A stretch of 37,430 nucleotides of DNA. It comes from a virus. Lineage: Duplodnaviria > Heunggongvirae > Uroviricota > Caudoviricetes. The notes under the pieces are model-generated. The model had not been told where the DNA came from and searched no databases. It saw only the letters and a list, made by a program, of their open reading frames with translations. The position numbers and the translations under genes were made by a program. Of this stretch, positions 5,028-36,730 are shown piece by piece. Each line of letters opens with the position of its first letter. Position 1 is the stretch's first letter. The stretch is taken from IMG/VR virus record IMGVR_UViG_2585427768_000010; one strand, given 5' to 3'.

Positions 5028-7850
5028 ATGACGGCAGAGTACATCAGGGACTGGCAACAACCGCGCCACGCAGTGGGGCGTGAAGGAACGGGGATCCCCG
5101 CTCCTGAATCCGCGCTTTCCTCCTGGCTGGATGCCTACCGGGCAGAGAACGAGCGCCGCCAGGAAATGGCTGATGCGGCGTTCTCCGCCACGCCGCTGGG
5201 CAACCTGATTAATAAAAGCCTAGACGCACAGGAAAAACAGGACAAAACAATCACACTGGCAGGAGACGCCAGAAAACAGGCACGCGGCGCGGTAGATGAG
5301 GCCATGGCCTCACTGCGCCTGCTGCCGTCCTATCTGCGCGATCCGCTTATTCGCCACCTCTCCTTCCTGCGCAAAAAACAGGAAGCCGATCGTCAGCAAG
5401 GAAAAAACGCCAGGCAGGCAGAACGCTATGCGCGTGGGACCCTGCGCAAAATATTCGAACGTCTGGAGCGCACCGATCACCGCTGGCTGACATCGGGTTA
5501 TCGCTCCCTTGCCGGACGTGAACGCCTGGACGATTTGATTTCCCTGCCGCAACTCAACAAACACCAGATACAGACGCTGGCCACCATGACGGCGGCGATG
5601 TTCAGCAGCACCTTCGAAAAACTCTGCGATGGTTTTGGCGCGACTGATGGCGAGCTGACCATGGATGTAACGCTGAAGGCGTATCAGATGCTGGCCCGCA
5701 TGGCGTTACACTTACACGCCATGCCTCCGCATTATGACGCACTGACAACAGACAAAGACCGGAGGCACGAACCGGACACAGAACTGCTGCCGGGCGCAAT
5801 CCTTCGCCTGACCTGTGCGGAATGGTGGAAACGCAAACTGTGGCTGTTACGTTGCGAGTGGAGAGAAGAACAACTCCGCGCCGCCTGTCTAGTTTCCAGA
5901 AAAACATCGCCCTATCTGAGCCAGGACGCGTTAAGCGAGTTTCGCGCACAGCGCGAGAAAACACGCGATTTCCTGAAAAGTTTCATGCTGGAAAATGAAG
6001 ACGGGTTCACGATTGATCTCGAGACGGTGTATTACGCGGGAGTAAGTAACCCGGTTCACCGTAAGGCAGAAATGATGGCCACCATGAAGGGGCTGGAACT
6101 TCTGGCCGAAGCCCGTGGCGACAAAGCGGTGTTTCTGACTGTCACCTGCCCGTCAAAATACCACGCCACAACGGAGAACGGTCATCCGAATCCCAAATGG
6201 AACGGGGCCACAATGCGCGACTCCAGCGATTACCTGGTTAACACGTTTTTTGCGGCGGTCCGCAAAAAACTGAACCGCGACGACCTGCGCTGGTATGGCA
6301 TCCGCACGGTGGAGCCTCATCATGACGGCACCGTGCACTGGCATATGATGGTCTTTGCACATCCGGAAGAAATCGACACCATTGTGTCCCATACCCGCGA
6401 TATTGCCATTCAGGAAGACCGCCACGAGCTGGGCAATGATATTACTCCGCGCTTTAAGGTGGAGTATGTCGACGGCTCAAAAGGCACGCCAACCAGCTAC
6501 ATCGCCACCTACATCGGAAAGAACCTGGACAGCCGCGCCGTGGATGGCATCGACCCGAAAACGGACAAGCCACGCGTGGACCACGAAACCGGAAAATCAA
6601 TGGCCGAGAGCGTGGAACGCGCCATCGGCTGGGCGCGTCTTCACCGCGTCCGCCAGTTCCAGTTCTTTGGTATCCCCTCCCGTCAGGTATGGCGTGAACT
6701 CCGCCGCCTTGCCAGTCAGATGGCCCGCAACCCGGAAGGTCCACAACGTCTGGAAAATGACGCAATGGATGCGGTACTCGCTGCCGCTGATGCCGGGTGT
6801 TTTGCCACCTACATTGAGAAACAGGGTGGCGTACTTGTTCCACGCAAAGACTACCTGATTCGCACCGCCTACGACCTCGCAGAAGAGCTGAACGATTACG
6901 GCGAGCAAAGCGTACAGATTTACGGGATCTGGTCGCCACAAATCGGGGAATCTTCCCGCGTGTGCACGCACCCGGATAACTGGAAGCTGGTAAGACGTAA
7001 ACCGGAAGCGGAAGACAGCGCCCGCGAAAATGGTTTTGACCTTCAGGGCGGCCCTGCCGCCCCTTGGACTCGTGGCAATAACTGTCCCCGTGTACAGGAA
7101 ACGGACAACAACGGGACAGAACAGCCGGAAGAACGGCCAGCACCGTGGCCGCAGCTCCCTGACGGCGTTGAAGTGAACGAATGGATGCGCTCACTGAAAC
7201 GGCACGAACGCCGGGCGCTGATGCGTTCGCTTCGTGACAAACAGGCAAAAAACAGCAGTGATGAAATGCAGAGCTGGACACAGAGCCGCAAACAGCAGCG
7301 GCCTTTGCCTGATAACCACGAATTACTCGCTAAAGAATGGCGGGAGTCTGCTGAATCTCTCGGCCTGCATATCGGTGAACAGCAGATGCAGCACCTGTTA
7401 CGGGGCGGCAGTCTGTACGTTGACGGCAGCATCATTGCACCGCAGGGATTTGAAATTGTACGCAAACCGGATACCCGACCGGACAGCCGGATCACGCAGC
7501 TCTGGCAGCGCCTGAGCCGTAACCACGGCGTAAGCAGCACGGAGATCCGCCATAACCCGGTCGCCAGCTATCTGGAACAGCTGGGGGCATCAGACCCCGA
7601 AGCCGCCGCACGCCTGGCATCCACACTTCAGCAAGACCAGAACACCATGAAAACACCCGTTACCGTGCTTTCTGACATGCTGCGCGCCATCCGCGACGCA
7701 GAGCACGCACAGAGAATCAGTGAAACCACTGAACGCGCCCGCCGCAAAGCAGACCTGCTGCGAGGTGGCCTGACCAGTGGAAACAAAAAACAGACAGAAA
7801 CGGGATTCACAAATCCCGTAAATGAGCAAAAAACGCGCCGCGATATATGA
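5028..7850 (+). CDS. A: Replication initiation protein A (rolling-circle endonuclease, 940 aa)
   Basis: HxH metal motif (VHWHMMVFAHPEE) and tandem-tyrosine rolling-circle motif (SYIATYIGKN) as in P2 gpA; position after early operon. Confidence 0.85.
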   Translation: MTAEYIRDWQQPRHAVGREGTGIPAPESALSSWLDAYRAENERRQEMADAAFSATPLGNLINKSLDAQEKQDKTITLAGDARKQARGAVDEAMASLRLLPSYLRDPLIRHLSFLRKKQEADRQQGKNARQAERYARGTLRKIFERLERTDHRWLTSGYRSLAGRERLDDLISLPQLNKHQIQTLATMTAAMFSSTFEKLCDGFGATDGELTMDVTLKAYQMLARMALHLHAMPPHYDALTTDKDRRHEPDTELLPGAILRLTCAEWWKRKLWLLRCEWREEQLRAACLVSRKTSPYLSQDALSEFRAQREKTRDFLKSFMLENEDGFTIDLETVYYAGVSNPVHRKAEMMATMKGLELLAEARGDKAVFLTVTCPSKYHATTENGHPNPKWNGATMRDSSDYLVNTFFAAVRKKLNRDDLRWYGIRTVEPHHDGTVHWHMMVFAHPEEIDTIVSHTRDIAIQEDRHELGNDITPRFKVEYVDGSKGTPTSYIATYIGKNLDSRAVDGIDPKTDKPRVDHETGKSMAESVERAIGWARLHRVRQFQFFGIPSRQVWRELRRLASQMARNPEGPQRLENDAMDAVLAAADAGCFATYIEKQGGVLVPRKDYLIRTAYDLAEELNDYGEQSVQIYGIWSPQIGESSRVCTHPDNWKLVRRKPEAEDSARENGFDLQGGPAAPWTRGNNCPRVQETDNNGTEQPEERPAPWPQLPDGVEVNEWMRSLKRHERRALMRSLRDKQAKNSSDEMQSWTQSRKQQRPLPDNHELLAKEWRESAESLGLHIGEQQMQHLLRGGSLYVDGSIIAPQGFEIVRKPDTRPDSRITQLWQRLSRNHGVSSTEIRHNPVASYLEQLGASDPEAAARLASTLQQDQNTMKTPVTVLSDMLRAIRDAEHAQRISETTERARRKADLLRGGLTSGNKKQTETGFTNPVNEQKTRRDI

Positions 7851-7898
7851 AGCGCGCATAAAACAGGCAAAAACGGGATTTCAGAATCCCGTAAACGA
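7798..7898. repeat. Two direct copies of a 28-bp hairpin-containing motif (AAACGGGATT-N5-AATCCCGTAAA)
   Basis: Copy 1 at 7798-7825 (inside the 3' end of A), copy 2 at 7871-7898; each is a 7-bp stem with 5-nt loop. Confidence 0.6.
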
Positions 7899-7926
7899 TT
7901 AATTAATCAACATAAGGAAAAGCGAC

Positions 7927-8328
7927 ATGAAAATTTGTATCGATGACGGCTCCACCAACATCAAGCTGGCATGGACTGAGAACGGCGAACGCCGCAACGC
8001 CATCAGCCCGAACAGCTTCAAGTCGGAATGGTCTGCGCCGTTCGGTGGCACGCAGCCCGCGAACTACATGCTTGATGGCGTGCGCTATGGTTTTGATCCG
8101 GTCAGCGATCGCTTTGTCCAGACAACTGACACGCAATACCAGTACAGCGATGTGAATGTCATTGCCATTCATCACGCGCTGGTCAAATCAGGCATCACGC
8201 CACAGGAGGTGGATGTGGTTGTCACCCTGCCACTGAGCGAGTATTTCGACACAAACGCACAGCCGGACATAGCCAACATCAACCGCAAAAAAAGCCCAGG
8301 ATTCCCGGGGCGGTTCAGAGGAGAGTGA
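7927..8328 (+). pseudogene. ParM/StbA-like actin-type ATPase, N-terminal fragment only (133 aa)
   Basis: Translation aligns colinearly with remembered plasmid R1 ParM residues 1 to about 125 (IDDGSTNIKL, SPNSFK, QYSDVNV, HHAL, TLPLSEY, NINRKK) then ends after 9 unrelated residues. Confidence 0.55.
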
Positions 8329-8330
8329 GA

Positions 8331-8822
8331 ATGCAAATTTCACCGGTTACTCTTCGTGTTGCGAAGGCGTTTATATCCAGACATCACCGACACAATAAAC
8401 CCCCGGTGGGGCATAAATTCAGCATTGGTCTGAGAAATGATGCCGGAGAATTGATAGGTGTGGCGACAGCCGGTAGACCTGTTGCACGACATTTGGACGA
8501 TGGATTAACGCTTGAAGTAAATCGCACATGTACCACAGGAGAACGCAACGCTAACAGCGCACTTTATGGTGCTGTCTGGCGGGCAGCAAAGGCTATGGGT
8601 TATCAACGTTGTATTACGTACACCCAGGCAGATGAATCAGGAGCATCTCTCCGCGCAGCTGGTTTTGTTCGTGTGAAAGAGCTTCCTCCAAGAAAAAGCT
8701 GGGCGGAATCAAGCGTCGCCCTGCGGAGTAAACGCGATCCGGTCGGAAACGGTGGTGTTCCTCGTGTGCTCTGGGAAATCAGGAGAATGAGTACCACTGG
8801 CATTCGCATCAAAGGAGAGTGA
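8331..8822 (+). CDS. Hypothetical protein, possibly GNAT-fold acetyltransferase-like (163 aa)
   Basis: AGGAGAG Shine-Dalgarno; weak GNAT-like pattern (GERNANSALYGAVWRAAKAMGYQRCITYT...ASLRAAGFVRV); fold assignment tentative. Confidence 0.45.
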   Translation: MQISPVTLRVAKAFISRHHRHNKPPVGHKFSIGLRNDAGELIGVATAGRPVARHLDDGLTLEVNRTCTTGERNANSALYGAVWRAAKAMGYQRCITYTQADESGASLRAAGFVRVKELPPRKSWAESSVALRSKRDPVGNGGVPRVLWEIRRMSTTGIRIKGE

Positions 8823-9087
8823 TATGGCAACTTTGACAAAAAAAGAACAAGCATGGTTGAGCGAATTACAGGACGTTCTTGATCGCTGCCCATCACCGAA
8901 AAAAATTGGTTTTTACACCATTGGCGATAAAAGCATTTACCTGTATGACCTGCGCCGCATGGATGAAATCATGGAGGCTCTTGATAATCGTTCGTCAATG
9001 GATTGGTGTGTTGCTGTCCATGATATGAATGCAGGGTTTGATGAAAAGATTTTGTTCCCCTCATCAGTTGAAAGCACAGCAGGATAA
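8808..9087 (+). repeat. Direct repeat copy 1 (about 280 bp, carries the 87-aa ORF)
   Basis: Near-identical to 9495-9773 with a single synonymous difference noted. Confidence 0.9.
8824..9087 (+). CDS. Hypothetical protein (87 aa), copy 1
   Basis: ORF MATLTKKEQAWLSELQDVLDRCPSPKK...; Shine-Dalgarno AAAGGAGAG. Confidence 0.5.
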   Translation: MATLTKKEQAWLSELQDVLDRCPSPKKIGFYTIGDKSIYLYDLRRMDEIMEALDNRSSMDWCVAVHDMNAGFDEKILFPSSVESTAG

Positions 9088-9097
9088 GGACTAACAC

Positions 9098-9508
9098 ATG
9101 ACCACTATTACCAAAGAACGTATTGAATTGTTCATTAAAAATCCGCTTGAAAACGGGCTTACTCGTGACGAACAAATGGAACTGGCACGAATTGCACTGG
9201 CATCGCTGGAAGCAGAGGCAGTTATGTTCTGTATATCAGGACAAAATGTAGATTCAGAAGAACATGTATCAACCAGCAAAGCGGTTGTTGATGCCTGGGT
9301 TGAAGAATGGAATCAGGTTGACGGAAGTCCTGGCGAACCACTGTACAAAACTATGCCACTCTACTATCACGCTGCCTTGCCAGCGCCGGTAGTGCCGGAT
9401 GAAATGTATTGGCAGGATGCGCCAGTTGAAGGCAGCAGCAAAGCGGCTGCATACGCTACAGGCTGGAACGCCTGCCGCGCCGCTATGCTTCATGGGAAAG
9501 GAGAGTGA
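9098..9508 (+). CDS. Hypothetical protein (136 aa)
   Basis: ORF flanked on both sides by the 280-bp direct repeat. Confidence 0.5.
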   Translation: MTTITKERIELFIKNPLENGLTRDEQMELARIALASLEAEAVMFCISGQNVDSEEHVSTSKAVVDAWVEEWNQVDGSPGEPLYKTMPLYYHAALPAPVVPDEMYWQDAPVEGSSKAAAYATGWNACRAAMLHGKGE

Positions 9509-9773
9509 TATGGCAACTTTGACAAAAAAAGAACAAGCATGGTTGAGCGAATTACAGGACGTTCTTGATCGCTGTCCATCACCGAAAAAAATTGGTTTTT
9601 ACACCATTGGCGATAAAAGCATTTACCTGTATGACCTGCGCCGCATGGATGAAATCATGGAGGCTCTTGATAATCGTTCGTCAATGGATTGGTGTGTTGC
9701 TGTCCATGATATGAATGCAGGGTTTGATGAAAAGATTTTGTTCCCCTCATCAGTTGAAAGCACAGCAGGATAA
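9495..9773 (+). repeat. Direct repeat copy 2 (about 280 bp)
   Basis: Near-identical to 8808-9087. Confidence 0.9.
9511..9773 (+). CDS. Hypothetical protein (87 aa), copy 2, identical to the 8824-9087 product
   Basis: Identical translation; true start is the ATG at 9511, not the longer track ORF 9399-9773. Confidence 0.5.
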
Positions 9774-9807
9774 GGACCCAGCAAATATACACAACCTATA
9801 AAACACT

Positions 9808-9834
9808 AAAGCGCCTCAGGGGCGCTTTTTGTTT
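9808..9834 (+). terminator. Rho-independent terminator after the hotspot genes
   Basis: AGCGCC-TCAG-GGCGCT stem-loop followed by TTTTTGTTT. Confidence 0.6.
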
Positions 9835-9866
9835 GCACAAAAGTGCACAAATTTGCACAATTTTTT
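9834..9866. repeat. Three tandem TGCACAA motifs spaced 4-5 nt apart
   Basis: ttgcacaaaagtgcacaaatttgcacaa; a fourth TGCACAA lies at about 9926-9932. Confidence 0.5.
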
Positions 9867-10242
9867 TGAACGACTTTTTACCCTTCCGGCCCGCATGGCG
9901 GCTGGATCCGTCAAGGATCCGTGCGTGCACAAAAAAACGCGCTTTTTCTGCGCGCAGGTGACGGGGGAACAGCCCGCGTTTCAGGGGGTAAATAGCATTC
10001 CCTGAACGATGTCGCAGAGACACAACAGAATGGCCATATTTCTCACGCTGAGCATGAAAAAGGCGTGAGGGCTTTTGATTTGATGGGGTGAAAGGTAAGG
10101 CCGTCAAAATCGCACTGAGGCAGCGAGAACATACAGTCAACGCGGTGGAATTGCGTAAGAGTCTGACCGTCGATGGTGGCGATAAACTGGAAGGCGTCGT
10201 GAAATTATCTGATTGATACAGGAGCTGGAGAGCCGGGGCATA

Positions 10243-10271
10243 AATTTTTTATGCCCCGGCGAAGCAGCAGA
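10243..10271. other. Perfect 13-bp inverted repeat with 3-nt spacer (GCCGGGGCATAAA ttt TTTATGCCCCGGC) in ORF-free region
   Basis: Seen directly; lies in the ORF-poor 9.78-10.33 kb interval where the cos site is expected. Confidence 0.5.
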
Positions 10272-10359
10272 CAAGCGAAGCGCGTCAGCGATACGGCACC
10301 TTGCCGACCATACTTCATAAGTGCAAAATACGAGCAAAGAAATCAATGGAGGCTGTCTT

Positions 10360-10884
10360 ATGGTCATTAATTACAAGCAGTTAAGAGAAAAACGGGAGCA
10401 GGTAAAGGAGAGCTTTCGCCGCAATGAAGATCTGACCCCGCTTGTACGCCTTGCCCAGGGCATTGTTGATGCTTATGAAATCTCGCTGGAGCTGCCATCA
10501 CAGACCTGGACAGATAGCGACGGTAATCGCCAGCATTACGTTTCATGCGGACTGGAAGCAGCCGAAGGATTTCGCAGAATGCCTTTATCCCAGATCCCTG
10601 CCGCTACCCCCAAAGCATGGGGCAGCAATGATGAGCGAAAACTGACTTTTAGTATTGAAACGGTGGTTGACGACACACCTGGCGAAGTCGCGTTCGTACA
10701 CACTCCTGTTTCGATCGCAATGTATAACGATGAAATACAGGTTCGCGTTAATAATAATATCGTGCCACTTAAAGAAGGTAATTCACCCTACACCACCGTT
10801 TGTGAAGCCATTCAATATTACGTTCTCTCTGAAATTGATAATCTCAAGCCTGACGGCACCCAGAAAATGGTTCAACTCTGGTAA
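10360..10884 (+). CDS. Hypothetical protein (174 aa from ATG 10360)
   Basis: GGAGG Shine-Dalgarno before ATG 10360; convergent with Q and sharing a terminator. Confidence 0.5.
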   Translation: MVINYKQLREKREQVKESFRRNEDLTPLVRLAQGIVDAYEISLELPSQTWTDSDGNRQHYVSCGLEAAEGFRRMPLSQIPAATPKAWGSNDERKLTFSIETVVDDTPGEVAFVHTPVSIAMYNDEIQVRVNNNIVPLKEGNSPYTTVCEAIQYYVLSEIDNLKPDGTQKMVQLW

Positions 10885-10889
10885 AAAGG

Positions 10890-10915
10890 ACAGCCCCATC
10901 ACGGGGCTGTTTTTT
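10890..10915. terminator. Bidirectional rho-independent terminator between the 174-aa gene and Q
   Basis: CAGCCCC-ATCA-CGGGGCTG hairpin flanked by A-run and T-run. Confidence 0.6.
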
Positions 10916-11945
10916 CATCAAGAAGAGCATAAGAGTTAAAACGGATCACCTCTTCGCCAAGCCAGTCATTGATGTGCTTCATAGCCTCCATGACGGGCAT
11001 CAGCTCGTTAATTGCGTAAACCCGCGCTGCCTTCTCCACATCGCCAAACGCACTTTTTTCGCCCGGCATCGCCCCCATCAGTTGCGGCGGAACGCGGTGC
11101 GCAGCCAGCACATCATCACGGGATGCCGCCTTAACATTCATGAATTCATCTTTTGCGGTGATCTGCTGGAACGGCAAAATTTGCACCCCCTCTTTGCCCC
11201 CGTTGGGCGCATGAATGAGCACGTTTTTAAACGCACCACCACCACGTGCCCCCTGTAGCGTTTCTTTCAGGGAGTCCATGCTTTCGCGGTTTACCTGCGC
11301 TGCACCGATGTAGATGATGCACCCGGCGTGGGATCCGTTGTCGTAGTACAGTTTTCTGAACATGTCCGCCGAATGAGAAAGGCTGGCCGAGAGTAATGCG
11401 CCAAGATATTCCGGCATGCCGTAGATTTCCTGGTTAATATCCGGATTCATCAGGTGGCACACTTTGCCAGGACGAAACTGAAACGCGTCCTTGCCATCCT
11501 GCACATACCACCATGATTCAAGATCGCTTCCGCGTCGCATGTATTTCGCCAGGGCGTGCCGTAATTTAAGCGGTTCGCCGAGCATATTGCTTCGAAGCTC
11601 AAGGAATGCGTTACCGAACACAAACCAGTCCAGCGCCAGCGCCGAGAAATCCTGCCGGGAAAGCAGCGGGTGCGGGATGTAGCAACCGAGTAATACATTG
11701 CGCTTAAAGTAAAGCGCAGACTGATGCCAGGACGTTTGCCGGGCAGCTCTTGCCAGACCGTACCAGTCCACCGGGGTTTCATACCACCGCCCGTTATCAG
11801 CACAGTACATATTGTCCAGCAGGTCATGCCCGGTCAGGCGATAAGGACCATCAAATGTGAATGCACTGAGCGATGATTCTTTCCTGAGCGCATCAGCGAG
11901 ATCAATGCGTGAACTCATGCGCACTTTTTTATTTTTTCTGCTCAT
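10899..11945 (-). CDS. Q: Portal protein (P2 gpQ-like, 348 aa)
   Basis: Size and position downstream of terminase P on minus strand; ATGA overlap with P stop. Confidence 0.85.
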   Translation of the reverse strand: MSRKNKKVRMSSRIDLADALRKESSLSAFTFDGPYRLTGHDLLDNMYCADNGRWYETPVDWYGLARAARQTSWHQSALYFKRNVLLGCYIPHPLLSRQDFSALALDWFVFGNAFLELRSNMLGEPLKLRHALAKYMRRGSDLESWWYVQDGKDAFQFRPGKVCHLMNPDINQEIYGMPEYLGALLSASLSHSADMFRKLYYDNGSHAGCIIYIGAAQVNRESMDSLKETLQGARGGGAFKNVLIHAPNGGKEGVQILPFQQITAKDEFMNVKAASRDDVLAAHRVPPQLMGAMPGEKSAFGDVEKAARVYAINELMPVMEAMKHINDWLGEEVIRFNSYALLDEKTAP

Positions 11946-13696
11946 CAGAACTCCATAACTGTGAAACGCTCGTTTTCTCCTTCGCCGCCAATTGGTTCGT
12001 TAATGACAGCAAGCATGGTTGCCCACGCAAGGTCGCCGTGGCTGATCCCCCTCGCGCGGTCCGTTTCGTAAGTGATAAAGCCGCCCGGTGTTTTCACCTT
12101 ACGCACGGCGTTAAAGGCTGCGACCAGCTCGCGTTCGGCGCGATCGTATTCCCACCGCCCGGCACGCATTATTTGCAGCATTTTCAGTACCAGCGACCGT
12201 TTTGATGACAGCGTGAAGGTGTACGGAATAGCAGCAGGGAAAAACCGTTTCACTATCTGATAAACAGCCTCCCCGTTCCCGCCCGTCACATCAATGCCGA
12301 TGTGTTCCACGTTGTAGCGACACGTGAACTCTTCAATGACTCTGGCCTGTTCTTCAAACTCCAGCCCCTGAACGCGTCGCGTCTCCACCGTTCGAAAACG
12401 GCCACCAGGAACAGACGGAGGAACCACCACGGACACAGCGCCGCTGTCGCCGTTGCCACTGCTGCCGTTTGCGTCATACCCAATCCATACCGGACGATTC
12501 CCCATCGGGCGGGGAGCAAAAGGTTTCCAGTCTTTCCAGTCGTCGTATCCGTCAACACCACAGCCAATCAGGATATTCAGGTTAAATGCCGATTCCCCTT
12601 CGCGGACAAACTCACACATATAGAGATTGAGGAACTCGTCTTCGGTGTTTTCATCACGAATTTCATCAATATCGGTGTGTTTCCAGCCGTGATTAACCAC
12701 ATCTTCCAGCGTGACAATTTGCCGCCACGTCCGGTCAGGGCAGATAAGCCCGTTATGCAGCGTTTTCCAGTCCACAGAAAAACGCTGGCGTTTATGCGTG
12801 GCCTTTTTCTCGTTCCAGCGGTCGCCGTTCCAGTAGGCGTATGCCTCGTGCGTTTCGGTGGATGGCGTGGAGAAGTAGGTGCGCCGCAGTCCGCTGAGGG
12901 TTGCCATAGCGCCAGCCACCTTGCGCAGTTCAGCAAAGCGACTGACCCAGAAAAATTCATCAAAATAAAAATTGCCCGTATAGGACTGCGCCGACGCAGC
13001 AGAAGTGCCGAGAAAATGCAGCTCTGCGCCGTTGGAGAGGATGATTTTATCGCCCCCTTTCAGCTCCACATCAACTTCAGCCGCGGCCTTCTGAATAATG
13101 CTTTTAAACTGGAACGCCTGACGACGCGACGCAGACAAAAAAATCTGGTTACGCTGGTAAGGTTGCGCCACATCGTCACGCAGCGCCATCAGCAGTGCTT
13201 CCTGTGCAAAATACCAGGTCGCGCCAATCTGTCGGGATTTCAGGATCATCCTGTTACGTATCCCGGCTTCCCTGCAAAGGGTCAGGGAGTCAAACCAGCC
13301 CCGCTGATGCCACTCCAGCCTGCTGATGATTTTTTCCCGCAGTGCGACAATCTGTTCCGGCGTGAAATGATTTTTGAGTTTTTTCGCCCGGCCTTTCTTT
13401 CCTGTGGCCGTCGCATCCGGCTGGCCATCATGCATTTTTTTAAGCTGCCGGGTCAGCAGGTCTATTTCCTTAAAGTCACCGCCTGTTTTATTCTGTTTTT
13501 CAGTAAGCTGGATGAGGCGCGCATCGATGGACTGCGTGACACGCTGCACGGGTGGCGTTTCATCCCACTGGTCGCGTTTTTTCCACGCATAAATCGTGTT
13601 CGGGTTTATTCCCATCAGACGTGATATTTCTGCGGGCGGATAACCCTGCCAGTAAAGTTGCCGCGCACGCTGGCGCACAAAAGCGTCCTGAATCAT
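11945..13696 (-). CDS. P: Terminase large (ATPase) subunit (P2 gpP-like, 583 aa)
   Basis: Size close to P2 gpP and divergent from the capsid operon as in P2. Confidence 0.85.
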   Translation of the reverse strand: MIQDAFVRQRARQLYWQGYPPAEISRLMGINPNTIYAWKKRDQWDETPPVQRVTQSIDARLIQLTEKQNKTGGDFKEIDLLTRQLKKMHDGQPDATATGKKGRAKKLKNHFTPEQIVALREKIISRLEWHQRGWFDSLTLCREAGIRNRMILKSRQIGATWYFAQEALLMALRDDVAQPYQRNQIFLSASRRQAFQFKSIIQKAAAEVDVELKGGDKIILSNGAELHFLGTSAASAQSYTGNFYFDEFFWVSRFAELRKVAGAMATLSGLRRTYFSTPSTETHEAYAYWNGDRWNEKKATHKRQRFSVDWKTLHNGLICPDRTWRQIVTLEDVVNHGWKHTDIDEIRDENTEDEFLNLYMCEFVREGESAFNLNILIGCGVDGYDDWKDWKPFAPRPMGNRPVWIGYDANGSSGNGDSGAVSVVVPPSVPGGRFRTVETRRVQGLEFEEQARVIEEFTCRYNVEHIGIDVTGGNGEAVYQIVKRFFPAAIPYTFTLSSKRSLVLKMLQIMRAGRWEYDRAERELVAAFNAVRKVKTPGGFITYETDRARGISHGDLAWATMLAVINEPIGGEGENERFTVMEF

Positions 13697-36427: not shown

Positions 36428-36514
36428 TGGTACCCGGAGCGGGACTTGAACCCGCACAGCGCGAACGCCGAGGGATTTTAAATCCCTTGTGTCTACCGAT
36501 TCCACCATCCGGGC
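36428..36514 (-). tRNA. leuZ: tRNA-Leu (anticodon TAA), 87 nt
   Basis: Reverse complement matches remembered E. coli leuZ sequence (GCCCGGATGGTGGAATCGGTAGACACAAGGGATTTAAAATCCC...CCA). Confidence 0.9.
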
Positions 36515-36526
36515 TCGGGAAGAAAG

Positions 36527-36600
36527 TGGAGGCGCGTTCCGGAGTCGAACCGGACTAGACGGATTTGCAATCCGCTACATAACCGCTTTGTTAACGCGCC
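36527..36600 (-). tRNA. cysT: tRNA-Cys (anticodon GCA), 74 nt
   Basis: Reverse complement matches remembered E. coli cysT (GGCGCGTTAACAAAGCGGTTATGTAGCGGATTGCAAATCCG...). Confidence 0.9.
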
Positions 36601-36654
36601 AAATTCTTCAGGCCTTTCAGCCAGACATCCGCTTGAGGCCGATGTCTTTTAAAC

Positions 36655-36730
<76 letters not shown>

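Follow-up and report, generated by a model that had tools for sequence, protein, structure and literature searches.

A truncated parM gene ending in an IS629/IS1203 terminal repeat at the gpA-gpQ locus of a P88-like Escherichia coli prophage

Introduction

The closest described relatives of the gene studied here are ParM (StbA) of plasmids R1 and NR1 (PDB 1mwk, 4a62), a type II actin-like partition ATPase, and the parM-parR module of P88-like phages, described as a 'putative plasmid partitioning system' (PMC9122126). In P2-like phages, the region from gpA to the portal gene is a published variable hotspot, defined as gpA-gpQ (Rousset et al. 2022, PMC9122126), and about one quarter of these phages carry a partition system there (PMC9122126). 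At the edges of P2/P4 hotspots, truncated genes are common as recombination remnants, and transposable elements are considered uncommon in the genomes of prophages (PMC13586616). Excision of IS629 driven by IEE or transposase, with flanking deletions and microhomology-mediated joining, is documented in E. coli (PMC9943667, PMC9397093); deletions mediated by transposase or IEE canonically cut at the IS terminus (PMC9943667).

Here we analysed a stretch of 37,430 nucleotides (the window), a P2-like E. coli prophage that is P88-like (genus Xuanwuvirus, Peduoviridae). The gene at its variable locus shares with R1/NR1 ParM a colinear N-terminus, including the DDGSTN motif, but neither the C-terminal domain nor the phosphate-2 and adenosine motifs are present, and ParR and a demonstrated parC are missing as well. 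With the P88-like parM-parR module it has in common the locus, the upstream region and the start codon (DNA identity 98–99.7%), whereas 1.6 kb, taken from the module and from two ORFs downstream of it, have given way to an IS scar. We consider it very likely that the open reading frame 7927..8328 is the 5' remnant of parM from a parM-parR (stbA-stbB) type II partition operon, left by an IS-associated deletion.

Results

A truncated parM gene next to gene A

The replication gene A (5028..7850, plus strand, 940 aa; Pfam Phage_GPA, E=3.9e-131) was 96–97% identical in DNA to its counterparts in P88, PhiR44_2 and Shae_phiSM, and it bounds the variable gpA-gpQ locus of P2 type on the left. On the other side, the portal gene (10899-11945, minus strand) had homologues in the genes annotated as portal in P88 and PhiR44_2. 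The gene next after gpA, between gene A and portal gene Q, is the parM-fragment ORF (7927..8328, plus strand), which starts with ATG and encodes 133 aa.

Residues 1-123 of this ORF corresponded to positions 1-123 of the 158 positions of Pfam PF06406 (StbA_N; E=1.8e-63), and residues 2-123 were colinear with residues 2-124 of plasmid R1 ParM (PDB 1mwk; E=3e-41), with about 56% identity over the matching region in a structural alignment. The ORF also matched PHROG 691 ('partition protein'). The colinearity with R1 ParM read by the initial annotation was thus real, although its length of 125 residues was slightly too long: the ParM-derived part comprises 122-123 residues, the first ~38% of the protein. 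The same annotation had taken the first actin-fold domain to be present as a whole, and this did not hold, as the fragment retains only ~78% of the N-terminal Pfam domain (StbA_N 1-123, versus 1-157 in intact phage ParM). The parM remnant proper (codons 1-122; 7927..8292, plus strand) keeps the phosphate-1 motif DDGSTN. The phosphate-2 (VDLGGTTLD) and adenosine (VVGGGAE) motifs, both present in the ParM of P88 and PhiR44_2, were absent, so that two of the three nucleotide-binding motifs are missing from the 133-aa product; a Pfam search of the fragment gave no match to the C-terminal domain PF21523.

After the ParM part, the ORF carries an appended tail of 11 residues (SPGFPGRFRGE) that is predicted to be disordered. 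An AF2 model of the fragment had a mean pLDDT of 63.8, with residues 123-133 below 50, and a Foldseek search with it returned R1 ParM (1mwk) at the top with a target coverage of only ~30% and a TMt of 0.30. The model is of moderate confidence only, and we used it solely for the ParM match and the disordered tail.

The translation signals, read from the sequence, are intact: the ribosome binding site AAGGA (7915-7919, plus strand) stands 7 nt upstream of the parM start (ATG, 7927-7929). The position of this start matches that in phages with intact parM, and the region lies within a stretch that is 99.7% identical to PhiR44_2.

Intact relatives and the extent of the deletion

A megablast of window positions 7600-8700 against phage genomes yielded 14 records that matched 7600-8292 at 95.7–99.7% identity and then all stopped. 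DNA homology to every related phage therefore ends at 8292, and the breakpoint expected near 8290 was confirmed. At the same locus, directly after gene A, P88, PhiR44_2, Shae_phiSM and others carry a full-length parM (319 aa) followed by parR/stbB (103 aa; PF10784, Plasmid_stab_B). The full-length phage ParM combines StbA_N (1-157) with the ParM C-terminal domain PF21523 (159-316), and its residues 2-317 align with R1 ParM (E=2.5e-93). The proposal of a recombination remnant, and the suggested search for a full-length parM in related prophages, were both borne out by these phages.

Pairwise BLAST of the window against PhiR44_2 (L002; the P88 record is L001) gave three blocks: window 5331-8292 with L002 2732-5693, window 8315-9091 with L002 7297-8073, and window 9497-12000 with L002 7793-10296. 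Since the alignment breaks at 8292 and resumes at 8315, the 1,603 bp of PhiR44_2 between them (L002 5694-7296) are missing from the window. They comprise parM codons 123-319, parR, a 110-aa ClpX-type zinc-finger ORF, and a 104-aa ORF except for its last codons.

None of this material was found elsewhere in the window. By tblastn, the full-length P88 ParM matched at 7927-8295 only; ParM residues 123-319 and the ClpX zinc-finger ORF matched nothing anywhere in the window, and P88 ParR (PF10784) gave only chance matches (E>=0.13). A Pfam search of the downstream ORFs likewise showed no Plasmid_stab_B domain. The 133-aa fragment cannot work as a partition ATPase.

The junction carries the end of an IS629/IS1203 element

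The junction reads CGC AAA AAA AGC CCA GGA TTC CCG GGG CGG TTC AGA GGA GAG TGA, and three segments can be told apart beyond the last parM base. The first, AGC (8293..8295, plus strand), is either filler or contains the GC of parM codon 123 after one extra A (A7, versus A6 in intact parM). The second is a solo terminal remnant of IS629/IS1203 (IS3 family), 22 bp long (8296..8317, minus strand), which reads TGAACCGCCCCGGGAATCCTGG and whose plus-strand sequence is CCAGGATTCCCGGGGCGGTTCA. The third is the shared cassette junction GAGGAGAGTGA (8318..8328, plus strand), which holds the ribosome binding site of the next gene (AGGAG, 8319-8323) and the stop codon of the parM fragment (TGA, 8326-8328). 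The tail of the protein is encoded by these junction bases, the IS repeat and the cassette junction together. An abrupt end of the fragment in the shared junction had been described from the sequence: this junction exists, although only the final 10-11 nt of the 133-aa ORF belong to it, and AGC and the IS remnant (8293-8317) come first. The IS scar itself was absent from that description.

The origin of the 22-nt segment was settled by a low-stringency BLAST against phages and plasmids. It matched, at 22 of 22 nt, the outermost bases of the inverted repeat on the orfA side, and the match stopped exactly at the IS terminus, which in the window faces the downstream cassette. The first base beyond the IS end is G in the window and A in intact phages, a difference that counts against the IS-associated deletion. 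In this search CCAGGATTCCCGGGGCGGTTCA was found at 100% identity in many Stx phages and in thousands of plasmids, usually in several copies per record. We read a full IS copy in the Stx2c phage LC645408 (1,310 bp, with orfA and orfB), whose end reads ...gtttagtctCCAGGATTCCCGGGGCGGTTCA|gagg. Its ORFs belong to the IS3 family according to NCBIfam, and PGAP names the copies 'IS3-like element IS1203 family transposase'; IS1203 we take to be an isoform of IS629. The 1,310-bp element was present in 4,260 of 5,426 complete E. coli genomes.

Within the window the IS terminal repeat occurred once (0 expected), and it remained the single match even with up to three mismatches. The ORFs from 7927 to 10884 include no transposase (orfA or orfB), and no second inverted repeat accompanies the remnant; the 22-bp segment is a solo remnant and not an element. 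Compared with IS629/IS1203, the window thus keeps the terminal 22 bp beside a large deletion, and the transposase, the second repeat and the target duplication are gone. We found nothing resembling the 22 nt in the loci of related phages and no match in a scan of genome contigs, and in viral contigs a scan hit nothing beyond the window and a single contig nearly identical to it. The full 36 nt of the junction occurred, among the complete E. coli genomes, only in the 12 that carry the truncated allele. Our literature search returned nothing specific on the IS end sequence or on Xuanwuvirus parM.

We also observed a terminator-like hairpin on the minus strand, CCCGGGAATCCTGGG followed by T7 (window 8295-8309), which is made by the IS repeat remnant and the A7 run. 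It is probably accidental, but it would face antisense transcription from the cassettes.

How the remnant may have arisen

The IS-associated deletion could have proceeded as follows. A copy of IS629/IS1203 would have inserted in the locus, and an illegitimate deletion would then have fused parM codon 122/123 with the IS at 22 bp from its orfA-proximal end, removing ~1.6 kb to the left of the IS and nearly the whole IS. The reading frame would thereafter cross the three junction bases and the IS repeat and stop at the TGA of the cassette junction. Two routes could lead there: the IS may have stood immediately 5' of the cassette ribosome binding site, with one subsequent deletion (route A), or it may have entered the A-run of parM, where an adjacent deletion came next and an imprecise excision last (route B). 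A progenitor with IS629 inserted in parM at the A-run was found neither in IMG/VR nor among the complete E. coli genomes. A complete IS629 abutting the GGAGAGTGA junction was likewise absent from IMG/VR, and the complete E. coli genomes gave only chance extensions at unrelated loci. As no progenitor was recovered, the order of events is inferred.

The break in the window lies inside the IS, whereas in the textbook product of excision or adjacent deletion (IEE/IS629) it lies at the terminus. Because canonical cuts fall at the terminus (PMC9943667), a break 22 bp inside the IS makes this a non-canonical product, which speaks against the proposed history. The locus also resembles the pseudogene remnants in P2/P4 defence hotspots (PMC13586616), both being a truncated non-defence gene at the edge of a fast-recombining locus; those remnants, however, are short intergenic relics, whereas here a still-open ORF of 133 codons is coupled to the next gene.

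Plain cassette exchange, in which the 3' part of parM was replaced by homologous or illegitimate recombination at AGGAGAGTGA without any IS, is an improbable alternative. It draws on the fact that AGGAGAGTGA is a significantly repeated boundary (three copies versus 0.05 expected), on the different cassettes that follow the one truncated parM across genomes, and on two other deletion alleles, of 191 and 199 aa, that contain no IS sequence. However, the junction motif does not occur in parM at the breakpoint, and the 22 bp that separate the parM part from the motif are the IS629/IS1203 terminus and end exactly there. Outside the parM junction, the full segment with the motif gave no more than partial matches at chance level in the complete E. 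coli genomes. The identity of the IS thus disfavours cassette exchange.

Distribution of the truncated allele and other short parM forms

Among the 5,426 complete E. coli genomes, 12 contained the truncated junction (8263-8328) and 1,197 the intact parM junction. Only one of the 12 (strain 190693; NZ_CP048934, near position 488,000) had the arrangement of the window; in the other 11 the truncated parM was followed directly by the 87-aa gene described below. This commoner arrangement probably derived from a window-like one via deletion between AGGAGAGTGA repeats.

The remnant is already known. The exact 133-aa protein had been deposited before (e.g. ESC97826.1, 'stbA family protein'), and in RefSeq the gene is flagged by PGAP as a pseudogene ('incomplete; partial in the middle of a contig; missing C-terminus'), in line with a recombination remnant; the new detail is the IS-derived junction. 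The identical 133-aa sequence occurred on 847 contigs and was listed by 1,499 blocks of the assembly collection. A family of proteins of about 130 aa, which had been named as the observation that would speak against a fragment, exists in this trivial sense only: the sequence is a single allele carried along with the prophage, and there is no diverged family. The exact protein was absent from the homology-search matches because it is clustered under a 946-aa protein; the 90%-identity cluster that holds the fragment is represented by a 946-aa replication endonuclease (gpA). This clustering is presumably an artefact; it might go back to a gene call that read through from gpA into ParM or fused the two.

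The remaining short ParM-N proteins of the database comprised different truncations, fusions and frameshifts. In particular, the 191-aa allele is an in-frame fusion of parM to the C-terminus of the 104-aa ORF, and the 199-aa allele is a fusion of parM to the ClpX-zinc-finger ORF on a different parM SNP background. Several 158-aa alleles result from frameshifts in the parM A6 run, and further short forms correspond to deletions at codons 65, 111 and 113 or to contig-end partials.

The left breakpoint was identical in the 133-, 191- and 199-aa alleles, after CGCAAAAAAGC (codons 120-123; window 8287-8295, L006 near 6135 and L014 near 4360), and the frameshifts of the 158-aa alleles fall in the same A-run. 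It is conceivable, though we think it unlikely, that CGCAAAAAAGC is a recurrent breakpoint, either a fragile site or a preferred IS629 target at which the partition module is opened again and again to remodelling of the hotspot, or that the N-terminal piece of ParM has been retained because it serves, for instance, to interfere with competitors segregated by ParM.

Finally, an ENA metagenome scaffold of 1,878 bp (L015) contained, at ~1447-1640, the 191-type parM/ORF104 junction and the IS-scar junction in tandem. Read in order, it holds the 191-type junction, 62 nt of ORF104 and CATCAACCGCAAAAAAA for a second time, with the IS629 scar and then the XF1762 gene behind it. The scaffold is either an assembly chimera or a true recombinant of two truncated alleles.

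The product and the expression of the remnant

The 133-aa product is most probably inert, the product of a non-functional pseudogene, as judged from its sequence: it is without two of the three nucleotide-binding motifs, all of domain II, part of domain I, and ParR. Expression of a stable product is nonetheless possible on sequence alone, since the ORF remains open behind good translation signals and recurs unchanged on 847 contigs.

These same features, together with the listing in 1,499 assembly-collection blocks and the ~56% identity to the corresponding region of R1 ParM, are what a functional stand-alone fragment could appeal to, for example one that caps, in a dominant-negative manner, the filaments formed by ParM of R1-type plasmids or P88-like phages entering the cell. 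We regard such a role, which the initial annotation had offered as its second option, as very improbable, and our results lent it no support. Only 123 of the 158 N-terminal domain positions remain, with the C-terminal domain and the phosphate-2 and adenosine motifs gone, and the tail is IS repeat, predicted to be disordered in a model with a mean pLDDT of 63.8. Moreover, no diverged family exists and the other short forms are unrelated truncations, fusions and frameshifts; the stretch, at 99.7% identity to intact alleles, is too young to show selection, and PADLOC gave no match. An assembly or sequencing artefact, or a simple A-run frameshift in an otherwise intact parM, is refuted: the breakpoint does lie at a homopolymer (A6/A7) where 158-aa frameshift alleles exist, but 12 independent complete genomes share the identical junction, as do hundreds of contigs, and the window contains neither the rest of parM nor parR anywhere along its length.

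With the remnant taken as the product of an IS-associated deletion, transcription and translation that enter parM would now run on into the downstream cassettes without ParR autoregulation. Since translation of the remnant ends on the ribosome binding site of the next gene, translational coupling to that gene is plausible: the TGA (8326-8328) ends 2 nt before the next ATG (8331), and the next gene's ribosome binding site lies within the last codons of the fragment. The idea that the remnant donates a promoter and a start site to the cassettes therefore fits as far as the start is concerned, with ribosome binding site and ATG intact; the promoter part has no support from a consensus scan, which found no sigma-70-like site on the plus strand between 7500 and 8400.

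Upstream of the remnant, a 42-nt direct repeat is present in two copies 73 bp apart (7784-7825 and 7857-7898), one inside gene A, at its final codons, and the other in the spacer between gpA and parM. Each copy holds a 20-bp palindrome, ACGGGATT-N4-AATCCCGT (7800-7819 and 7873-7892; two matches versus 0.18 expected), and the repeats are conserved in P88 (L001 5185-5299). They may represent a candidate ParR operator or parC-like centromere, or else terminator-like hairpins of the minus strand. If the promoter of the par operon is ParR-repressed, the loss of ParR would leave the downstream cassette, which encodes a Mom-like/XF1762 protein, on a derepressed unit; this is speculation, but such a derepression would be relevant when these cassettes are tested.

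The downstream cassettes and their shared boundary

The window holds AGGAGAGTGA three times (8319, 8813 and 9499), and every copy of this motif stands at a gene boundary, where it supplies the ribosome binding site and the stop codon of one gene just before the next ATG. The first cassette gene (8331..8822, plus strand; 163 aa from ATG 8331) belongs to the XF1762 family (NCBIfam NF045478, E=5e-61) and matches PHROG 1384 ('Mom-like DNA modification protein'). Its region is 99.6% identical to PhiR44_2 (L002 7297-8073), and the gene may have a DNA-modification or anti-restriction function. Its match to Pfam Mom was weak and sub-threshold, and PADLOC gave no match for it.

A gene of 87 aa (PHROG 1714) follows in two copies (8824-9087 and 9510-9773, plus strand), which lie within a perfect direct repeat of 281 bp (8811-9091 and 9497-9777, plus strand; 100% identity). 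A 136-aa gene (9098-9508, plus strand; PHROG 5117/660) stands between them. PhiR44_2 has one copy of the 87-aa gene and is without the 136-aa gene. The duplication looks like a recent cassette insertion via recombination at the AAAGGAGAGTGA-T-ATG boundary, and the 281-bp direct repeat should be unstable. The defence-system models of PADLOC matched neither the fragment nor its neighbours, and no known RNA family was found in 7400-11000.

The ORF is to be read as a pseudogene that marks a parMR deletion in a P88-like prophage and not as a new small protein, and its significance beyond correct annotation is small. It documents an IS scar in a P2-like prophage hotspot, and it shows that the variable locus can reach further left, into the partition module.

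Near the right end of the window we also detected three tRNA genes (Leu-TAA, Cys-GCA and Gly-GCC; 36428-36730, minus strand), which are probably host flank marking the prophage attachment site.
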